Part shown: positions 2,563-51,781 of the stretch, piece by piece | Layout: every line of letters begins with the position of its first letter | Numbering within the stretch: the first letter of the stretch is position 1 | NCBI GenBank assembly: GCA_041309005.1 | Contig: JBFZAN010000031.1 | Span: forward strand, 1 to 63,663 | Length of the DNA: 63,663 bases | Direction: 5' to 3' | Source of the DNA: Candidatus Omnitrophota bacterium | GTDB taxonomy: Bacteria; Omnitrophota; Gorgyraeia; Gygaellales; Profunditerraquicolaceae | The notes under the pieces: generated by a model | The model's database searches: none | What the model saw: the letters and a program-made list of their open reading frames with translations, nothing else | What the model was told of the DNA's origin: nothing | Made by a program: the position numbers and the translations under genes

Positions 2563-5500
2563 ATGGTGAATCTGCTCAGAGGGCAGTTGGACTACATTTT
2601 TTTCTTCTACGGCCTGGCATTTCTGGTCCTGGCAACCGTTTGTTTCTCCCTGGACAGGACGAAAATGCACAGGATACCCTGGTTGTGGTTGGGGATGTTC
2701 GGCCTCGTGCATGGCCTGCAGGAATGGCTTGACCTCGCCTGTTTTGTGTGGGCATCGAATAAAGTTATCCCGGTCATCCGCGCGGTCGCCCTGGTGATAT
2801 CTTACCTGTTTCTTTTTGAATTCGCCAGGAGAGGCTTCAAGCTTATATATAACCGCAGGCCCGGAGTCTGGATTTACATACCGTTCTTGTTGCTGATCGC
2901 CTTTTTTAACGGCCACAGCCTCGAAAGCCTCAATGTGGTCACTCGCTATGCGCTCGCGCTCCCTTCCGGCGTCAGCGCCTTCTGGATAATCTATAAGTTT
3001 TTCAAGGCCGAAACCCATCCCCGTCTGCGCCGGTTGCTTTTGGTCTTAAGCCTTTCACTGGGGTTGTACTCCGTATTAGCCGGCTTGATCGTCCCCGAGG
3101 CAGCATTTCCTCCCGCATGCTGGATCAATTATAATTCTTTCCTGAAGATATTCGGGTTCCCCGTACAGTTTTTAAGGGGAATCTCGGCGATAGTATGCGC
3201 GATGGCTATCTGGGCTTATTCGGAAGAGTACCGGCTGTTTATTTCCAAAGAGCAGCGGTATCCTGCGCGTTTACAGTTATCCACCTGGCTAATGTTCATA
3301 CTCATCGCGTTGATCGGATGCGGCTGGGTGCTGGTGAATTATTTAGGCGCGCAGTCTAAAGACCGGCTTATTACCGATACCAGGATAGACGTCTCTGATC
3401 TTTCTCATACTTTGCTTGCCGAGCTGACCAAGATCGAACAGGCGGCGATGACCATAAGCGGCTCTCCCTGGATAGCGCCGGCTTTGGTTACCGCAGACCT
3501 TCAGAACATAAGAAACGCCAATGCCGTGCTCACGCGGTACAGGCGTTCTCTGGGCATGTCGGAATGTTTCCTGCTTGATCTTAAAGGTACCGCGATAGCG
3601 TCTTCCAACTGGAATACCCCGGATTCATTCATAGGGGCTTCATTCGGCAGATTGGCATATTTTAAGCAATCGCTTAAAGGGGAATTGGGGAGTTATTTCG
3701 GCTTTGATCCTGTTTCCCGGGAACGCTGCTATTACTCCAGCTTCCCCGTGCGCAATGAAGAAGATATGATCATCGGCGTGGTGGCCATGAAAAGAAGCAT
3801 AGAGATACTTGAAGAAGAGTTCAGGTCGCAGTCGCGTTGTTTCCTGGCCGATCCTTTCGGCATCATATTTTTATCCAGCGACAGGGAATACATTTTCCAC
3901 AGTATCTGGCCGGTGAATAAGGCGTTAGAGCGGCGAATCGTGGATTCCGGCCAGTTCGGCGGGACGCCGTTCGCGGCGCTTTTATCCCGGGAAGTTCTCG
4001 ACGGCGACCGCATCGCTTTTCAGAAAAGCGATTTTTTCGTAATACGCGCGCCCATCGGCCGGGAAGGCTGGTCTATGGTGCGTTTTGTCTCGACAGGGCC
4101 GATCCTCCAGTACCGTTTATACGGCATTTCCCTCATTTTATTCCTTTCCATCATGGTGATGGTTCTGTTCGTCGCCGTCAAGCAGAGGGAGAACCTGCTG
4201 GCGCTTATTTCCACGGTCAATACGCAGTTAAAGACCGTGCTGGATGCGGCGACTCATGTCTCCATCATCGCCACCGAACTCCACGGTCTGATCTCGGTAT
4301 TCAATACGGGCGCCGAAAGGATGCTGGGGTATCCCGCAGAGGAGATGGTCGAGATGCATACCCCCGAGATCCTGCATCTTGAGTCCGAGCTCATCGCCTA
4401 CGGCAAGCGCTTAAGCGAGGAGCTTCATCATCCCGTTGCGGGGTTTGACGTGCTGGTCGCGCATGCCAGAGAAGGCCGCTATGACGAAAAAGAATGGACC
4501 TATGTGCGCAGGGACGGCCGTAAGATCACCGTAAGCCTCTCCGTCACTGCGCAGCGCGATGCCAAAGGCGAACTTATCGGGTTCCTGTTTATCGCCACGG
4601 ACATCACCGAGCGCAAGAAAATAGAAGAGGCGCTGCGTTACAGCGACGAGAGGTTCAAGCAGGTGGCGGAGAGCGCGGGCGAATGGATTTGGGAAGTCGA
4701 CAGGTTCGGGCTGTACACCTATTCAAGCCCCGTGATAAAAAACATCCTTGGTTTCGAGGCGCAAGAGATCGTCGGCAAGAAATATTTTTATGACTTTGTC
4801 CCCCTGGATGAAAAAGAAGCGTTACGCAAAGAAATGCGCGATATCTTCTCGAAAAGGGAGCCCTTTACAAAGCTGGCTCACCCGCATCTGCACAGAAATG
4901 GGGACCAGGTGATCATGGAGTCTACCGGCATACCGTTGCTGGATGAAGAAGGGATCCTCCTGGGATACAGGGGCGTTGATACCGATATCACCGAGCGTAA
5001 GCGCGCGGAAGAAGCGCTGGCGCGCCAGGCGCAGGAGCTGGCGCGTTCCAATACCGAATTGGAGCGTTTTGCCTATGTAGCCTCCCACGACCTGCAGGAG
5101 CCGCTGCGCATGGTGTCCAGTTATGTGCAGCTTTTGGAAAAGCGTTACAAAGGAAAGCTGGATGCCGACGCCGATGATTTTATCGCCTACGCGGTAGACG
5201 GTGTAAACTGGATGCAGACGCTTATCAACGGCCTCCTCGCCTATTCGCGCGTGGGTACTCAGGGCAAGAAATTTGAGGCTACGGACTTAAACAGCGTCAT
5301 TATCAGGGTCCTTATGAATCTCAGGATCGCCATAGAAGAGACGGGCGCGGTAGTGACGCGCGATCCCCTGCCCACCCTTGCGGCCGACGGCTCACAGCTG
5401 GAACGCTTGTTCCAGAACCTTATCGGCAATGCCATAAAGTTCCATGGCGACAGTCCGCCTGAAGTCCATGTTTCGGCGGAGCAGAAGGCCGATGAGTGGC

Positions 5501-5751: not shown

Positions 5752-6639
5752 ATGACGAATAAGCTCATGAAGATCCTCCTGGTCGAGGATAACGTCGGCG
5801 ACGCGCGTCTTTTAAAAGAACATCTGACGGAATCAAGCGAGCTCCAGTTTGAATTGGCCCACGCCGAACGCCTCGGTTCGGCGCTGCAGCGGTTAAGCAA
5901 GGACCATTTCGACCTTATCCTGCTTGACCTTATGTTGCCCGACAGCCAGGGTTTTGATACGTTCATCAAAGTCCACGAGCACGCGCAGGATACCCCTATC
6001 GTGGTGCTTTCAGGCCTTTACTACGATGCGATCGCCTTAAAGGCGGTCAGCGAGGGCGCGCAGGATTATCTTGTGAAAGGCCAGGTCGACAGCGCTATGC
6101 TGGTGCGCTCTCTAAGGTATGCGATCGAGCGTAACCGCATGCAGATGGCGCTGCGCAGCCAGTCGCTTATCGATGACCTTACCGGCCTCTATAACCGAAG
6201 GGGTTTTATAACCCTGGCCGAACAGCAGCTCAAGCTTTCGCGAAGGAGCAAAAGAGGGTTTTTCCTTGTCTTTGTCGACCTCGACGGTTTAAAACAGATC
6301 AACGATTCGTTCGGCCACCTTCAAGGTGACGAGGCGCTGACCAGGACGGCTTTGATACTTAAGAAGACGTTCAGGGAGACGGATATCGCAGCGCGCATCG
6401 GCGGGGATGAGTTTATGGTCCTGGCGATCGACGCCGCCGGAGATAGCGCCGACATTATCACCCGGCGCCTTGAGGATTGCAAGAGTGAATTCAACAGGCA
6501 GCAAGACCGCCTCTATCGCCTCTCGCTGAGTTTTGGCATCGTGTATGTTGCTCCCGGGGACGCTTCTTCGCTGGAGCAGCTTATGGAAAAGTCCGATGAG
6601 GAATTGTATAAACATAAACGCAGTAAAAAGGAGATCTAA
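5752..6639 (+). CDS. Response regulator diguanylate cyclase (REC-GGDEF)
   Basis: REC with EDN...LLDLMLPD...K; DDLTGLYNRRGF, DLDGLKQINDSFGHLQGD, intact RIGGDEF with an RETD inhibitory site 5 residues upstream. Confidence 0.95.
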   Translation: MTNKLMKILLVEDNVGDARLLKEHLTESSELQFELAHAERLGSALQRLSKDHFDLILLDLMLPDSQGFDTFIKVHEHAQDTPIVVLSGLYYDAIALKAVSEGAQDYLVKGQVDSAMLVRSLRYAIERNRMQMALRSQSLIDDLTGLYNRRGFITLAEQQLKLSRRSKRGFFLVFVDLDGLKQINDSFGHLQGDEALTRTALILKKTFRETDIAARIGGDEFMVLAIDAAGDSADIITRRLEDCKSEFNRQQDRLYRLSLSFGIVYVAPGDASSLEQLMEKSDEELYKHKRSKKEI

Positions 6640-19210: not shown

Positions 19211-21751
19211 ATGAGCAATAAGCATTTATATTTGATCGACGCTACCGCGTTCTGTTATCGCGCTTTCTACGCGCTCAGCGGACTCGCCACGTCCTTCGGT
19301 CAGCCTACGAACGCAGTCTTCGGGTTCATCGTGATGCTTAATAAGGTCATGAAAGAGCACGCGCCTGAGCTCCTGGGGATTTGTTTCGACGTTTCGAGGG
19401 AGACCTTCAGGCAGAAGAAATTTGCGGAATATAAGATCAACCGGCCCCCTATGCCGGAGGGCTTATCCAGCCAGATACCGCTTATCAAGGAGGTCGTGAA
19501 GGCCTTCGGCATAGCGTTGTTCGAGCGGCAAGGGTACGAAGCCGACGATATCATCGCGACCCTCGCCCGCAAAGCTAAAGCAAAAGGCATCGCTACGACC
19601 ATCATAAGTTCCGACAAGGATATATTACAGCTGGTGGATGAGCGTACCTCGGTGTTCAGCCCCTACAAAGATGAAGGCGTCATGTATGACGAAAAGAAAG
19701 TGCACGAGCGTTTCGGGGTGAGCCCCTCCCGGATAAGCGACGTGATCGCGTTGATGGGCGACAGCGTGGACAACATACCGGGCATTCCCGGCGTGGGGGA
19801 AAAGACCGCCGTGGGGCTGATCAAGACCTTTGGCTCCGTGGATTCCTTATTGACCCAGGTCGAACGGATACCCCAGGAAAGAATAAGAACGGCGATACGC
19901 GAGAACGCCGATAAGATAAAGTTAAATAAAGAGCTGACGGTGCTGGATGAAGCGCTGGATTTAACGTTCGACGAGCGCGCATTGGAGGTCCCTGAGCCCG
20001 ACTATCAGGAATTATTCAGGATATACAAGCGCCTTGAATTCAAGGCGTTCTTAAAAGACCTTCCCGTCAAAGAAACCGGGCAGGATACCGTTAAGCCCAA
20101 GCTTTTAAGCGATGAGGCGATAAAAGGGCTCCTTAAGGAAGAAGGCGAATTGATCCTCTACGGGGATACCCTCAAGGATCTTACTTTTTTCGCGCACGCA
20201 ACCGCCTTTCAGGCGGACGGCATAGCTGCGGGCCTCAAAACAGCCTTGTCAAATCCCGCCTGCAGGAAAACAGGCTACGACTTAAAGAGGATGAAACTCG
20301 TCCTGGCAAAAGAAGATATCGCGCTGGAAGGCCTTGAATTCGACGCCATGATCGCAGCGTACCTGCTCAATCCTTCCAAGCCCGAGTATACCCTTAACGA
20401 CACGGCGTGGGATTTTCTGGGCACGCCTTTGCCGTCGGGGCAGCTTGAAGGGGCCAGGGCGGTCAGCGTCATTGCGCAGTTAGTACAAGCGCTTAAAGCG
20501 GCGCTTCAGGAAAAGTCCCTCGCCTCGCTTTTTACTGAAATCGAAATGCCACTGGTCGACGTGCTGGCGCATATGGAGATGACGGGGATAAAAGTAGACC
20601 CCGGCGTGCTTAAGAGGATCTCGGGTGAACTGGAAAAAAGGCTGATCGAACTGAATGAGGCTATCTATTCTTTAAGCGGGTGCCAGTTCAATATCAATTC
20701 CCCCAAGCAGCTTCGCGAGGTGCTATTTGAAAAATTGAAACTGCCCGTGGTGAAAAGGACCAAGACCGGCCCTTCTACCGACGAAGAAGTGTTAAGGAGC
20801 CTGGCGGCCAAGCACAAGCTTCCCGCCTTACTGCTTGAGTACCGCCAGCTGATGAAGTTAAAAACGACGTATGTGGATGCGCTGCCGAACCTGATAGACC
20901 CCGGGACCCAAAGGATCCACACGTCTTTTAACCAGACCGGTACTGAAACCGGCAGGCTCAGTTCCAGCAATCCTAACCTGCAGAATATCCCGATAAAGAC
21001 CGGCATCGGCAGGAGCATCAGGCGCTCGGTGGTTTCCTTCGAAAAAGGCACGTTTCTTCTCTCCTGCGATTATTCGCAGATAGAATTACGGATACTGGCC
21101 CATATTTCCAGAGACGCCCAGCTTATAGACGCGTTTAAAAAGGACGAGGATATACATAAGGCTACCGCCGCGTTGATCCACGGCGTCAAGGAAGGAGACG
21201 TTACCGAAGAGATGCGCACTCTCGCCAAGAGGGTCAATTTCGGCATCGTCTACGGCCTCACTTCGTTCGGCCTCGCCAGGGACCTTTCGATTTCGTTCGA
21301 AGAAGCCCAGGGGTTTATCGACGCCTATTTTGCCCGTTATCCCGGCGTAAAACAGTATATCGATACGCAGATCGCCTCCGCCCGCAAAGACGGGTTTGTC
21401 ACCACGATCCTGGGCAGGAGAAGATATGTCCCCGAGATCACTAATAAGAACCCGATGATACGCCAGCTCGCGGAAAGGCAGGCGGTAAATACTCCCATAC
21501 AGGGCTCGGCGAGCGACCTGATCAAATCAGCCATGGTCCAGATACACCGCGCGATAAAGGAAAAAGGCTTGCAAAGCGCCATGATACTGCAGATACACGA
21601 CGAGCTCCTGTTTGACGTGCCGGATGAAGAAGCGGCAGCATTTATTCCGCTGGTCAAAGATAAGATGGAAAACGTCCTGCGGCTTGAGGTGCCGGTAAAA
21701 GTGGATATGAAAAAAGGGAAGAACTGGGCGGAAATGGAGGAAATAAGATAA
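19211..21751 (+). CDS. polA: DNA polymerase I
   Basis: 5'-3' exonuclease (YLIDAT, GYEADDII, LMGDSVDNIPGIPGVGEKTA), a short degenerate 3'-5' exo region, and the polymerase motifs DYSQIELR, KRVNFGIVYG, LQIHDEL. Confidence 0.98.
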   Translation: MSNKHLYLIDATAFCYRAFYALSGLATSFGQPTNAVFGFIVMLNKVMKEHAPELLGICFDVSRETFRQKKFAEYKINRPPMPEGLSSQIPLIKEVVKAFGIALFERQGYEADDIIATLARKAKAKGIATTIISSDKDILQLVDERTSVFSPYKDEGVMYDEKKVHERFGVSPSRISDVIALMGDSVDNIPGIPGVGEKTAVGLIKTFGSVDSLLTQVERIPQERIRTAIRENADKIKLNKELTVLDEALDLTFDERALEVPEPDYQELFRIYKRLEFKAFLKDLPVKETGQDTVKPKLLSDEAIKGLLKEEGELILYGDTLKDLTFFAHATAFQADGIAAGLKTALSNPACRKTGYDLKRMKLVLAKEDIALEGLEFDAMIAAYLLNPSKPEYTLNDTAWDFLGTPLPSGQLEGARAVSVIAQLVQALKAALQEKSLASLFTEIEMPLVDVLAHMEMTGIKVDPGVLKRISGELEKRLIELNEAIYSLSGCQFNINSPKQLREVLFEKLKLPVVKRTKTGPSTDEEVLRSLAAKHKLPALLLEYRQLMKLKTTYVDALPNLIDPGTQRIHTSFNQTGTETGRLSSSNPNLQNIPIKTGIGRSIRRSVVSFEKGTFLLSCDYSQIELRILAHISRDAQLIDAFKKDEDIHKATAALIHGVKEGDVTEEMRTLAKRVNFGIVYGLTSFGLARDLSISFEEAQGFIDAYFARYPGVKQYIDTQIASARKDGFVTTILGRRRYVPEITNKNPMIRQLAERQAVNTPIQGSASDLIKSAMVQIHRAIKEKGLQSAMILQIHDELLFDVPDEEAAAFIPLVKDKMENVLRLEVPVKVDMKKGKNWAEMEEIR

Positions 21752-21768
21752 TGTCCCGGCTCATGGGC

Positions 21769-21898
21769 TATGCCAAAATTCTCTTCGATAATTTTGGCAT
21801 ATTCGCCGGGATTAATTCGCAGACGCCTCGCTGACGCGAGGCTATGATTTACGTCGCTGGCGGTGCAGCAGGCGCTCCGTAAATCATCTGCTCATTAA
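21769..21898. other. Structured intergenic palindromic element (hairpin + three-way junction)
   Basis: Perfect stems TATGCCAAAATT/AATTTTGGCATA (21769-80/21790-801), GCCTCGC/GCGAGGC (21825-31/21836-42) and ATGATTTACG/CGTAAATCAT (21844-53/21878-87); closing stem TTAAT-TC-GCAG/CTGC-TC-ATTAA (21812-22/21888-98). Confidence 0.75.
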
Positions 21899-21909
21899 GG
21901 AGGGTTGGT

Positions 21910-23292
21910 ATGAAGATAGCGATATGCGCAAGCGAAGTAGTGCCTTTTGCCAAGACGGGTGGCCTGGCTGACGTCGGGGGAGCGTTGCCTTTGGCGCTGG
22001 AAGAAGAAGGCCAGGATGTGATCGTCATCATGCCGGGGTATAAGTCTGTACGTAACCTTAAAGGTGTAAAGATCGAAAGACTGAAAGAGGGCGTTTCTTA
22101 TTCCGTGATCGGCAAGAAAGTAAAGGTCTTTTTTATAGAGAACGACGCCTATTTCGGCCGTGATTCACTCTATGGTGATAAGAGCGGCGATTATAAGGAC
22201 AACCTCGACCGTTTTTCATTTTATTGCCGGCGCGCGATAGAGCTGATGAAAGAAATAAAGTTTAAGCCGGACGTGGTGCACTGCCATGACTGGCAGTCCG
22301 CGCTGATACCCGTGTTCCTGAAGAACTCCTTTGCCGGTGACTCATTTTATAAGAACACTAAAACCGTCTTGACGATCCATAATATCGGCTACCAGGGGCT
22401 ATTCCCTAAAGAGGAGTTCCCGAAGCTGGGCCTTGACTGGAAACTCTTTAATATGGAGATACTGGAGTTTTACGATAAGGTAAATGTGTTAAAAGGCGGC
22501 ATCGTGTTTTCTGACCTCGTGACTACCGTAAGCGCAACGTACAGCAAGGAGATTCAGACCAAGCAATTCGGCTTCGGCCTTGAGGGGATATTGGCCAAAC
22601 GTAAAGCCTCGCTCTCAGGGATATTGAACGGCCTCGATTATTCGATCTGGAACCCCGAGACCGACAAGTATATCGCCGGTAATTATTCTCTGAAAACCAT
22701 AGAGGATAAATCTCAATGCAAAAAAGACCTTCAGAAAATATGCAACCTTCCTCTTAACGAGAAGGTGCCTTTGTTCGGGATCGTCTCAAGGCTCGCGGAA
22801 CAGAAAGGTTTCGATATACTCGCCGAAGACATTGACGCGATCTGCAAGCTTAAACTCCAGATGGTGATCCTGGGGACAGGGGATTTGAAATACCATCAGA
22901 TCCTGGAGGCTATCGTGAAGAAATACCCCAAGGTCGTGTCGCTGCATTTGAAGTTCGACGACTCGCTGGCCCATAAGATCTACGCAGGCTCTGATATTTT
23001 CCTTATGCCTTCCAAGTATGAGCCGTGCGGGCTGGGGCAGTTGATAAGCCTTCGCTACGCAACCCTGCCGTTGGTGTTTAAGACCGGAGGCCTTGCCGAT
23101 ACGGTCACCAGGGAGAACGGCTTTGTGTTCGATATATATAACAAGGAAGAATTGCTTAAGGCCATTAAGGGAGCGATGCTTGTGTTTGGCCAGAAGAAAA
23201 AATGGGCAGCGCTCATGAGCACGGCTATGCAATGTAAATTCTCCTGGAGAGAGTCGGCGAAGAAATACATCCAGCTGTACAAAAAGGCTTAA
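21910..23292 (+). CDS. glgA: Glycogen synthase (ADP-glucose type)
   Basis: PFAKTGGLADV, HCHDWQ, LTIHNIGYQG, GILNGLD, SRLAEQKG, MPSKYEPCGLGQL; SD AAGGAGG at 21897-21903. Confidence 0.97.
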   Translation: MKIAICASEVVPFAKTGGLADVGGALPLALEEEGQDVIVIMPGYKSVRNLKGVKIERLKEGVSYSVIGKKVKVFFIENDAYFGRDSLYGDKSGDYKDNLDRFSFYCRRAIELMKEIKFKPDVVHCHDWQSALIPVFLKNSFAGDSFYKNTKTVLTIHNIGYQGLFPKEEFPKLGLDWKLFNMEILEFYDKVNVLKGGIVFSDLVTTVSATYSKEIQTKQFGFGLEGILAKRKASLSGILNGLDYSIWNPETDKYIAGNYSLKTIEDKSQCKKDLQKICNLPLNEKVPLFGIVSRLAEQKGFDILAEDIDAICKLKLQMVILGTGDLKYHQILEAIVKKYPKVVSLHLKFDDSLAHKIYAGSDIFLMPSKYEPCGLGQLISLRYATLPLVFKTGGLADTVTRENGFVFDIYNKEELLKAIKGAMLVFGQKKKWAALMSTAMQCKFSWRESAKKYIQLYKKA

Positions 23293-30995: not shown

Positions 30996-31004
30996 AATGC
31001 TGCC

Positions 31005-36347: not shown

Positions 36348-36497
36348 ATGGCAGAAAAGGGATATTGCGTAAAATGCAAAAATATGAAGGAAATGAAGGA
36401 CGAACAGAAGGTCACGATGAAGAACGGCCGCGCGGCAGCGAAAGGCAAATGCCCTGACTGTGGTACCGGGATGTATAAGATCTTAGGGAAAAAATAA
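36348..36497 (+). CDS. 49-aa basic zinc-ribbon protein, DUF5679-like (absent from the ORF track)
   Basis: Translated by hand: MAEKGYCVKCKNMKEMKDEQKVTMKNGRAAAKGKCPDCGTGMYKILGKK. CxxC...CxxC, strong SD and its own promoter. Confidence 0.88.
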   Translation: MAEKGYCVKCKNMKEMKDEQKVTMKNGRAAAKGKCPDCGTGMYKILGKK

Positions 36498-40305: not shown

Positions 40306-40320
40306 CCGCAGGATGCGGCG

Positions 40321-51376: not shown

Positions 51377-51449
51377 GGGCCACTAGCTCATCTGGTAGAG
51401 CACCACCCTTTTAAGGTGGGTGTGCCGCGTTCGAGTCGCGGGTGGCTCA
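51377..51449 (+). tRNA. tRNA-Lys (anticodon TTT)
   Basis: Acceptor stem GGGCCAC/GTGGCTC, anticodon arm CCACC-CTTTTAA-GGTGG, T arm CCGCG-TTCGAGT-CGCGG; no encoded CCA. Confidence 0.95.
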
Positions 51450-51452
51450 TAG

Positions 51453-51549
51453 GATTTTCCCACCGTATGTGGGAAAAATCAACCCCGATGCATGCGTAGG
51501 AAATTTCAGGGGCGAAGCGACAGAAATTTACAAGCGTTTATGCAAGGGG
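51453..51549. other. Two hairpins in the tRNA-Lys/tRNA-Leu spacer
   Basis: TTTTCCCAC/GTGGGAAAA (51455-63/51469-77), then a long imperfect hairpin with CCCC/GGGG, TGCAT/ATGCA and AAATTTC/GAAATTT helices (51483-51549). Confidence 0.55.
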
Positions 51550-51589
51550 AAGGATTGATTCCGCACTGCCAGGAATAGAGTAAGATCAT

Positions 51590-51671
51590 GCGGACGTGGC
51601 GGAACTGGCATACGCGATAGCCTTAGGAGCTATTGGGGCAACCCTTAGGGGTTCAAATCCCTTCGTCCGCA
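51590..51671 (+). tRNA. tRNA-Leu (anticodon TAG)
   Basis: Acceptor stem GCGGACG/CGTCCGC, anticodon arm ATAGC-CTTAGGA-GCTAT, long variable arm GGGGCAACCC, T loop TTCAAAT; no encoded CCA. Confidence 0.95.
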
Positions 51672-51708
51672 TTATTGAAGCGCTCGAAGGCCGGGAAAGT
51701 AAAGATTT

Positions 51709-51781
51709 GCGGGAGTAGCTCAGTTGGTAGAGCATCACGTTGCCAACGTGAATGTCGCGGGTTCGATCCCCGTCTCCCGCT
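51709..51781 (+). tRNA. tRNA-Gly (anticodon GCC)
   Basis: Acceptor stem GCGGGAG/CTCCCGC, anticodon arm TCACG-TTGCCAA-CGTGA, T loop TTCGATC, U discriminator; no encoded CCA. Confidence 0.95.

Follow-up and report, generated by a model that had tools for sequence, protein, structure and literature searches.

Introduction

REP sequences that lie inside operons stabilise the upstream mRNA or attenuate read-through. REP/BIME sequences of enterobacteria and the REPIN-RAYT system of Pseudomonas are extragenic or intercistronic and occur in many copies. Bacterial MITEs (Correia of Neisseria, ERIC/IRU and RUP) and the BOX elements of Streptococcus pneumoniae are non-coding and 100–250 nt long, and the ends of IS200/IS605 elements, like their palindrome-associated derivatives, carry subterminal hairpins. 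Definitions of the REP-type elements can also be found in two papers (PMC3733652, PMC3337134). The family described below shares its extragenic position and many copies with the REP systems, its length and lack of coding capacity with MITEs and BOX, and its hairpins with the IS200/IS605 ends.

Omnitrophota are uncultured, widespread and very small bacteria with tightly packed genomes. To our knowledge, their non-coding repertoire is essentially uncharted, and the phylum is without genetics. We analysed a stretch of 63,663 nt from Candidatus Omnitrophota, hereafter called the window; among species representatives, the best matches to its GlgA came from Omnitrophota MAGs (71% and 67% identity). 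A first-pass annotation had singled out a highly structured element between polA and glgA. We conclude that window positions 21752–21898 very probably belong to a mosaic family of interspersed repeats in Omnitrophota, as one singlet among many non-coding copies; the family is similar in kind to REP, BIME and MITE sequences.

Results

The polA–glgA spacer contains a two-domain folded element

Between the end of polA (21751) and the start of glgA (21910) lies a 158-nt spacer, which stands out because most other intergenic spacers of the window are shorter than 60 nt. All inverted repeats given by the first-pass annotation (a perfect 12-bp hairpin, a 7-bp GC hairpin, a 10-bp stem and a closing stem with a 2x2 loop) were present in the spacer sequence, as were its two TTAA motifs at 21812–15 and 21895–98. 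It had placed the element at 21769–21903; the structure was confirmed, but the start lies further left, since an outer stem (21754–60 with 21805–11) makes the unit 21752–21898. The inner GCTG/CAGC helix that it proposed can form, but this helix is outside the minimum-energy fold and is not conserved in relatives. The features are as follows.

21749–21751 (+): polA stop codon TAA, directly 5' of the element
21752–21898 (+): complete repeat unit, present as a singlet and of the three-way-junction subtype (match to covariance model R1; full-length alignment to 46 metagenome copies)
21754–21811 (+): domain A (minimum-energy fold and inverted repeats; compensatory changes within the family in P1a and in pair 12–52)
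21754–60 with 21805–11: P1a, 7-bp outer stem of domain A (TCCCGGC with GCCGGGA), which encloses the 12-bp hairpin
21761–62 and 21803–04: TC/TC 2x2 loop of domain A
21763 with 21802: A–T pair of domain A, followed by a 5-nt bulge
21769/70–21780 with 21790–21801: P2a, the perfect 12-bp stem of domain A, with a 9-nt loop
21812–21816 (+): 5' strand of helix P0, TTAAT, containing the left TTAA; pairs with 21894–21898 (columns 62–66 covary with 159–163)
21817–18 and 21892–93: TC/TC 2x2 internal loop of domain B
21819–21823 (+): GCAGA, 5' strand of the closing stem P1b; pairs with TCTGC at 21887–21891
21825–21842 (+): P1.1, an optional inserted hairpin (GCCTCGC-TGAC-GCGAGGC; stem 21825–21831 with 21836–21842) forming the third arm of the junction
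21844–21887 (+): P2b, an inverted repeat of ATGATTTACG with CGTAAATCAT (10 bp, 21844–21853 with 21878–21887), and its variable apex 21854–21877
21894–21898 (+): ATTAA, 3' strand of P0 and 3' terminus of the element, containing the right TTAA (21895–98); supported by covariation
21898–21912 (+): glgA SD AAGGAGG (21898–21904) and start codon, host sequence outside the repeat (motif common to relatives without the element)

We judged folding by shuffle z-scores and not by raw energy, because 160-nt tiles of GC-rich coding DNA reach −74 in the window. The RNA fold of 21752–21912 gave −66.1 kcal/mol (z = −4.28) on the plus strand and −66.7 kcal/mol (z = −6.28) on the minus strand, and with DNA parameters 21752–21898 had a z of about −7 on both strands. 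None of the 200 shuffles folded as well, on either strand.

The fold consists of a long hairpin followed by a three-way junction, and both domains carry the same 2x2 UC/UC internal loop beside a G–C helix, in opposite polarity. The right TTAA runs into AAGGAGG, as had been noted before; this SD ends 5 nt before the glgA ATG at 21910 and is unpaired in the minimum-energy fold. P1.1 together with the downstream TATGATTT resembles an intrinsic terminator (consensus scan match at 21825–21852, plus strand). A 27-codon ORF (MSRLMGYAKILFDNFGIFAGINSQTPR, 21751–21834, plus strand) starts at the TAATG overlap with the polA stop and runs to a TGA within the loop of the hairpin that resembles a terminator. 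This ORF was rejected as a coding sequence and is probably spurious: indels among the family members change its frame, and it is therefore not conserved.

The element is a member of a dispersed family

We scanned metagenomes with the 12-bp inner stem of domain A as the pattern, leaving the loop free. The scan gave 70 loci, 65 of which were homologous over the entire 118–147 nt unit, beyond the stem; the other five were unrelated AT-rich palindromes and not family members. The window copy and 46 metagenome copies made up alignment A2 (47 sequences), from which covariance model R1 was built. R1 matched the window copy with 106.6 bits (E 1.4e-21, model positions 1–118) and, in the 415 kb that the member loci span, picked up about 30 additional copies of greater divergence. 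The first half of the A2 consensus reads tCCCGSCTCAtaagc-TATGCCAAAATT-CTCTTYGAT-AATTTTGGCATA-TTCGSCGGGAT and continues as -aAATTC-GCGCA-t-TAACTTACG-(variable apex)-CGTAAGTTA-a-GCGCT-CAYTTA; the unit termini are T(A/G)TCCCG... and ...CTCAYTWA. The repeat unit is about 118 nt long, and it reaches 147 nt in the window because the optional extra hairpin is present. A hairpin with a different stem sequence occupies the position of P1.1 in at least eight other copies (in L100, L126, L132, L133, L115, L134, L138 and L141), and some copies have further optional modules or a different hairpin in domain A. The indels in A2 are not multiples of three, which argues that the family is non-coding.

Copies are often clustered, with four in 1 kb in L134, four each in L141 and L095, and several per 10 kb. 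At least eight head-to-head doublets were found, with spacers of 11–18 nt. Although the arms of a doublet are inverted, they are not of one subtype. In doublets of seven loci (L115, L133, L124, L155, L144, L111 and L099) the spacer holds a conserved RTTAYCAAT-like motif, and for this reason the doublets look like coherent units and not like two independent insertions.

Where source names were given, proteins of the member loci came from Candidatus Omnitrophota, and seven member loci were syntenic with the window, at 55–84% amino-acid identity. Across 667 kb of glgA loci, R1 gave no match in other phyla; its sole match was weak and came from an Omnitrophota locus, L001. In this locus (Omnitrophica GWA2_41_15, the 71% relative), a variant repeat lies at 6080–6212, between coaE and rho; it combines domain B with another kind of domain A and with a TTCGCTAA...GTGCTCAA module. 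No second copy was found in the 63.7-kb window by mismatch patterns, blastn-short or the covariance model with filters off; the multi-copy status of the family in the window's own species is therefore inferred from relatives. Blastn searches of phages and plasmids with the element as query returned nothing, or 25-nt chance matches in Burkholderia, and pattern scans of viral contigs gave 0 matches.

The first-pass annotation had recognised no Rfam family, and our Rfam searches agreed with it. The whole window gave only tRNAs, and the element region at E up to 10 gave one chance lncRNA match. Nothing was found in 20 member loci at the Rfam 15 gathering threshold, and four canonical copies at E up to 1 gave only sub-threshold chance matches. 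In the literature, searched also by sequence string, we found no description of the repeat family, which appears to be undescribed.

The helices covary

In A2, 94.2% of the cells of the specified structure were paired, compared with 83.9% in column shuffles and 24–41% when the partners were slid by 1–3 columns. Both sides had changed in 21 of the 43 pairs, and compensatory cells numbered 218 against 65 in shuffles, a value that none of 500 shuffles reached. The 12-bp stem is invariant in A2 only because it served as the search pattern. When no structure was supplied, RNAalifold recovered the same helices, with 16 compensatory pairs. In P1b (columns 69–72 with 153–156), 6 to 29 sequences had changed on both sides, and P2b (columns 102–111 with 143–151) showed strong compensatory variation. 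P0 occurs in the family as AAAT/ATTT, AAGT/ACTT, TAAT/ATTA, CAAT/ATTG and TTAT/ATAA. These results showed that the predicted helices have been preserved by compensatory substitutions.

The first-pass annotation had considered TTAA as a target duplication. This idea had to be dropped: both TTAA motifs are strands of the covarying helix P0, and the hairpin that precedes the first of them belongs to the element as well.

Which strand is the selected one is ambiguous. G–U outnumbered A–C combinations by 25 to 13 in the raw counts and by about 12 to 9 without misaligned rows, which is not decisive. The apical loops are GNA or AAA triloops and GCAA or GUAA tetraloops on the usually non-sense strand, and these loop motifs would favour the reverse strand.

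The polA–glgA copy was gained in the window lineage

Eight assemblies of the same species (L081–L088) were at least 99.8% identical and hence useless for covariation. The element was identical in all of them except L087, which had two SNPs, both at unpaired positions: G21765A, which shifts the bulge towards the family consensus A, and C21781A in the apical loop.

The five nearest relatives (L001, L002, L089, L090 and L091) have kept the order polA–glgA and lack the element. In L089 (GlgA identity 80%) about 100 nt of unrelated sequence separate the two genes (z = −1.6), in L091 (76%) 34 nt and in L001 (71%) 48 nt, while polA and glgA overlap in L090 (76%) and in L002 (67%; ATGA). The glgA ribosome-binding site AGGAGGGT is common to the window, L091 and L001, so that about 147 nt were inserted between the polA stop codon and a pre-existing SD. 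The orthologous junctions thus show that the window lineage gained the copy, precisely after the polA stop codon and before the ribosome-binding site of glgA.

Copies were present in some relatives and absent from others at four orthologous junctions.

polA–glgA: filled in the window; empty in L001, L002, L089, L090 and L091
trpC–trpF: filled in L095 (453–558); empty in the window (30996–31004)
recJ–rpmB: filled in L095, L134, L120 and L150; empty in the window (40306–40320)
coaE–rho: filled in L001 (variant copy); empty in the window, where coaE and rho overlap

A MITE/REP-like non-autonomous element had been among the proposals of the first-pass annotation, to be recognised by many dispersed homologous copies together with empty orthologous sites; both were found.

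Although the flanks of L095 and L134 have about 99% identity, entire modules distinguish the element block of one from that of the other. Such differences between near-identical strains are the behaviour of a mosaic interspersed repeat. In both loci, repeat clusters surround rpmB downstream of recJ (L095 10042–10722 and L134 796–1712), with modules swapped or absent, and the rpmB region looks like a hot spot of the family.

Copies adjoin unrelated genes in both orientations

The neighbours of the copies include rpsM, rplP, groES, hisF, fabF, rpsR, rplT, rnfE and others, and copies occur in both orientations. Many lie between housekeeping genes of operons: infA/rpsM, hisA/hisF, ssb/rpsR, infC/rplT, rnfG/rnfE and recJ/rpmB/rpsO. 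The 3' terminus CAYTWA directly abuts the next gene, at its SD or ATG, or at the stop codon when the gene is convergent. Relative to co-directional flanking genes, about 26 copies were co-oriented and about 13 reversed. Among the singlets, 28 had the forward strand on the G-rich, sense strand and 10 did not, a bias that could reflect a function at the RNA level and not selfish spread.

Mobility genes and element ends

An all-against-all BLAST of 355 flanking ORFs from about 415 kb of member loci, together with Pfam scans of 18 of them, revealed no transposase or other recurrent neighbour; the proteins that did recur were pilins, ABC ATPases and products of syntenic housekeeping genes. Among the same ORFs, no gene for a Y1 transposase (RAYT) or TnpB was found. 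No direct repeat that would mark a target-site duplication was seen at the junctions compared between L095 and the window or at polA–glgA. The singlets lacked a clear terminal inverted repeat, the nearest approach to one being TAATG...CATTA in some copies, and no fixed flanking target tetranucleotide was identified on the 5' side.

Other features of the window and of member loci

Nearly all genes of the window, and its GC skew, run with the plus strand; rpmB (ribosomal protein L28, 40321–40548) is among the very few minus-strand genes. A three-tRNA gene cluster at 51377–51781 (+) accounts for the only Rfam matches in the window. Other long 'intergenic' gaps were found to hold short genes that had not been called at first, and were discarded as candidates. 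An uncalled 49-aa ORF at 36349–36497 (+) has two CxxC pairs (MAEKGYCVKCKNMKEM...CPDCGTGMYKILGKK); upstream are a near-consensus promoter-like TTGACC-17 nt-TATAAT and an AAGGAGG SD. In L137 (1633–4882), two direct repeat copies flank a small island with a Fic/DOC-family protein and two unknown ORFs. The small ORFs beside the island (4895–5113 and 5103–5363) were read by eye as a putative pair of RHH antitoxin and RelE-like toxin.

Discussion

The family has the MITE traits of being small, non-coding, multi-copy and insertion-polymorphic. In its architecture, domain A consists of the outer stem, the UC/UC internal loop and the 12-bp stem, and domain B of P0, the UC/UC loop, P1, the optional P1.1, P2 and the variable apex. 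The family may have spread, or been reshuffled, as a non-autonomous element, with an enzyme acting in trans that recognises the folded hairpin, as with REP/REPIN-RAYT or IS200/IS605 ends; this route has somewhat less than an even chance of being the right one. Hairpins transcribed within operons could act in the manner of REP/BIME sequences, by holding up 3' exonucleases, offering sites for processing or terminating transcription weakly, and would thereby uncouple neighbouring cistrons. At polA–glgA, the insertion would break an ancestral translational coupling, leave the glgA SD free and place a terminator-like hairpin upstream of glgA. The likeliest consequence is a modest decoupling or attenuation and not metabolite-responsive control.

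Several other explanations were weighed against an interspersed repeat. Chance or trivial structure, that is, ordinary terminator hairpins of polA without homologues, would suit a site downstream of a long gene where one arm fits the terminator consensus; given z values of −4.3 to −7.0, 0 of 200 shuffles folding as well, and at least 65 homologues with compensatory changes, we consider this almost certainly wrong. A cis-regulatory RNA controlling glycogen synthesis had been another proposal of the first-pass annotation, and a glgA-specific leader (riboswitch or attenuator) might perhaps use the 27-codon ORF. The element does sit directly upstream of the glgA SD, with a terminator-like hairpin and T-rich tail on the plus strand and an ORF of 27 aa starting at TAATG. 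However, the five closest relatives do without such a leader at polA–glgA, homologues are found before or after dozens of unrelated genes and in either orientation, the ORF does not survive the frame-shifting indels of the family, and the arm that looks like a terminator is only optionally present, with a T-rich tail formed by the 5' strand of P2. Such a leader is very improbable, and on these comparisons a metabolite-sensing one is effectively excluded. More weight is due to a functional structured RNA module that is not selfish DNA, serving intercistronic processing, stability or termination or as the site of an RNA-binding protein, although we still think it rather unlikely; it partly overlaps with the repeat-family explanation. 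Selection would then keep the copies in operons, and the two conserved UC/UC internal-loop helices would do the work. Strong covariation in every helix, highly conserved loops and bulges, both orientation biases (28:10 for singlets and about 26:13 beside co-directional genes), a 3' end that consistently leaves the downstream SD or ATG free, and the location of copies within ribosomal-protein and biosynthetic operons all speak for it, whereas one third of the copies are antisense, doublets hold both orientations, the orthologous junctions of close relatives manage without the element, the block is reshuffled between near-identical strains, and the stable-hairpin loop motifs (GNA, GNRA) are on the usually untranscribed strand.

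The element could also derive from a single-strand DNA transposon of the IS200/IS605 or RAYT type, with domains A and B as subterminal hairpins and P0 as the contact between guide and cleavage site of a Y1 HUH transposase. This is an unlikely origin in our view: no Y1 transposase or TnpB gene was found in any member locus examined, the 5' side has no conserved flanking target tetranucleotide, and the orientation bias relative to GC skew is merely about 3:1. In IS608, guide and cleavage-site contacts are partly non-canonical, unlike the plain 4–5 bp helix formed here. Nevertheless, the absence of a target-site duplication and of a long terminal inverted repeat, hairpins at both ends, REPIN-like head-to-head doublets and the strong fold of both strands with DNA parameters all speak for such a transposon. 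The terminal AYTW tetranucleotide moreover covaries with the tetranucleotide just 5' of the foot of the domain B hairpin, and this P0 pairing resembles guide/cleavage-site recognition in IS200/IS605, a lead and not a result.

We also leave room, with little confidence, for the family being the folded RNA or single-stranded DNA substrate of a mobilisation or processing system specific to Omnitrophota. It is left open because of the two UC/UC loop motifs of opposite polarity, a terminal tetranucleotide and an internal guide-like one that covary, and the exchange of domain A variants as modules. These three features would fit a new mechanism of hairpin-guided transposition; an intercistronic RNA module, domesticated to set expression ratios in the tightly packed operons of such ultra-small cells, would be compatible with them as well. 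The reading that we prefer remains the mosaic interspersed repeat.

A covariation-backed repeat family of 118 nt accounts for puzzling structured spacers and prevents their misannotation as riboswitches or sRNA genes, and its copies can serve as strain-level markers through presence or absence and module swaps. Regulatory RNAs and mobile repeats cannot be told apart within a single window, whereas one pattern scan is enough to do so. Should the guide-like pairing at the terminus reflect movement, it would point to a hairpin-directed mobilisation system in Omnitrophota.

Compared with known systems, the family differs from REP sequences in size and design: a REP is an imperfect palindrome of 20–40 nt, whereas the Omnitrophota unit has 118–147 nt, two domains and conserved internal loops. 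The GTAG or CGTC end tag of REP/REPIN is absent from its consensus ends, and unlike in REPIN-RAYT, no RAYT gene was found among the 355 flanking ORFs. As in REP/BIME and REPIN-RAYT, however, the unit forms hairpins that are kept by compensatory change, occurs as singlets and inverted doublets, and builds mosaic clusters with conserved linkers and positions in operons. The family differs from IS200/IS605 in that P0 is a regular covarying helix, that it has no defined target motif, and that neither TnpA nor TnpB turned up among the flanking ORFs; the likeness lies in the subterminal hairpins without terminal inverted repeats or target-site duplication, and in a tetranucleotide 5' of a hairpin that pairs with the terminal tetranucleotide. 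MITEs conserve the termini that bind a transposase, while the Omnitrophota family conserves covarying intrastrand helices; it has no known parental IS, and neither terminal inverted repeats nor target duplications are demonstrable in its singlets. Like MITEs and BOX, it shows insertion polymorphism between relatives, occupies sites beside the starts and ends of genes, folds strongly when transcribed, and has a modular build that recalls boxA-B-C.
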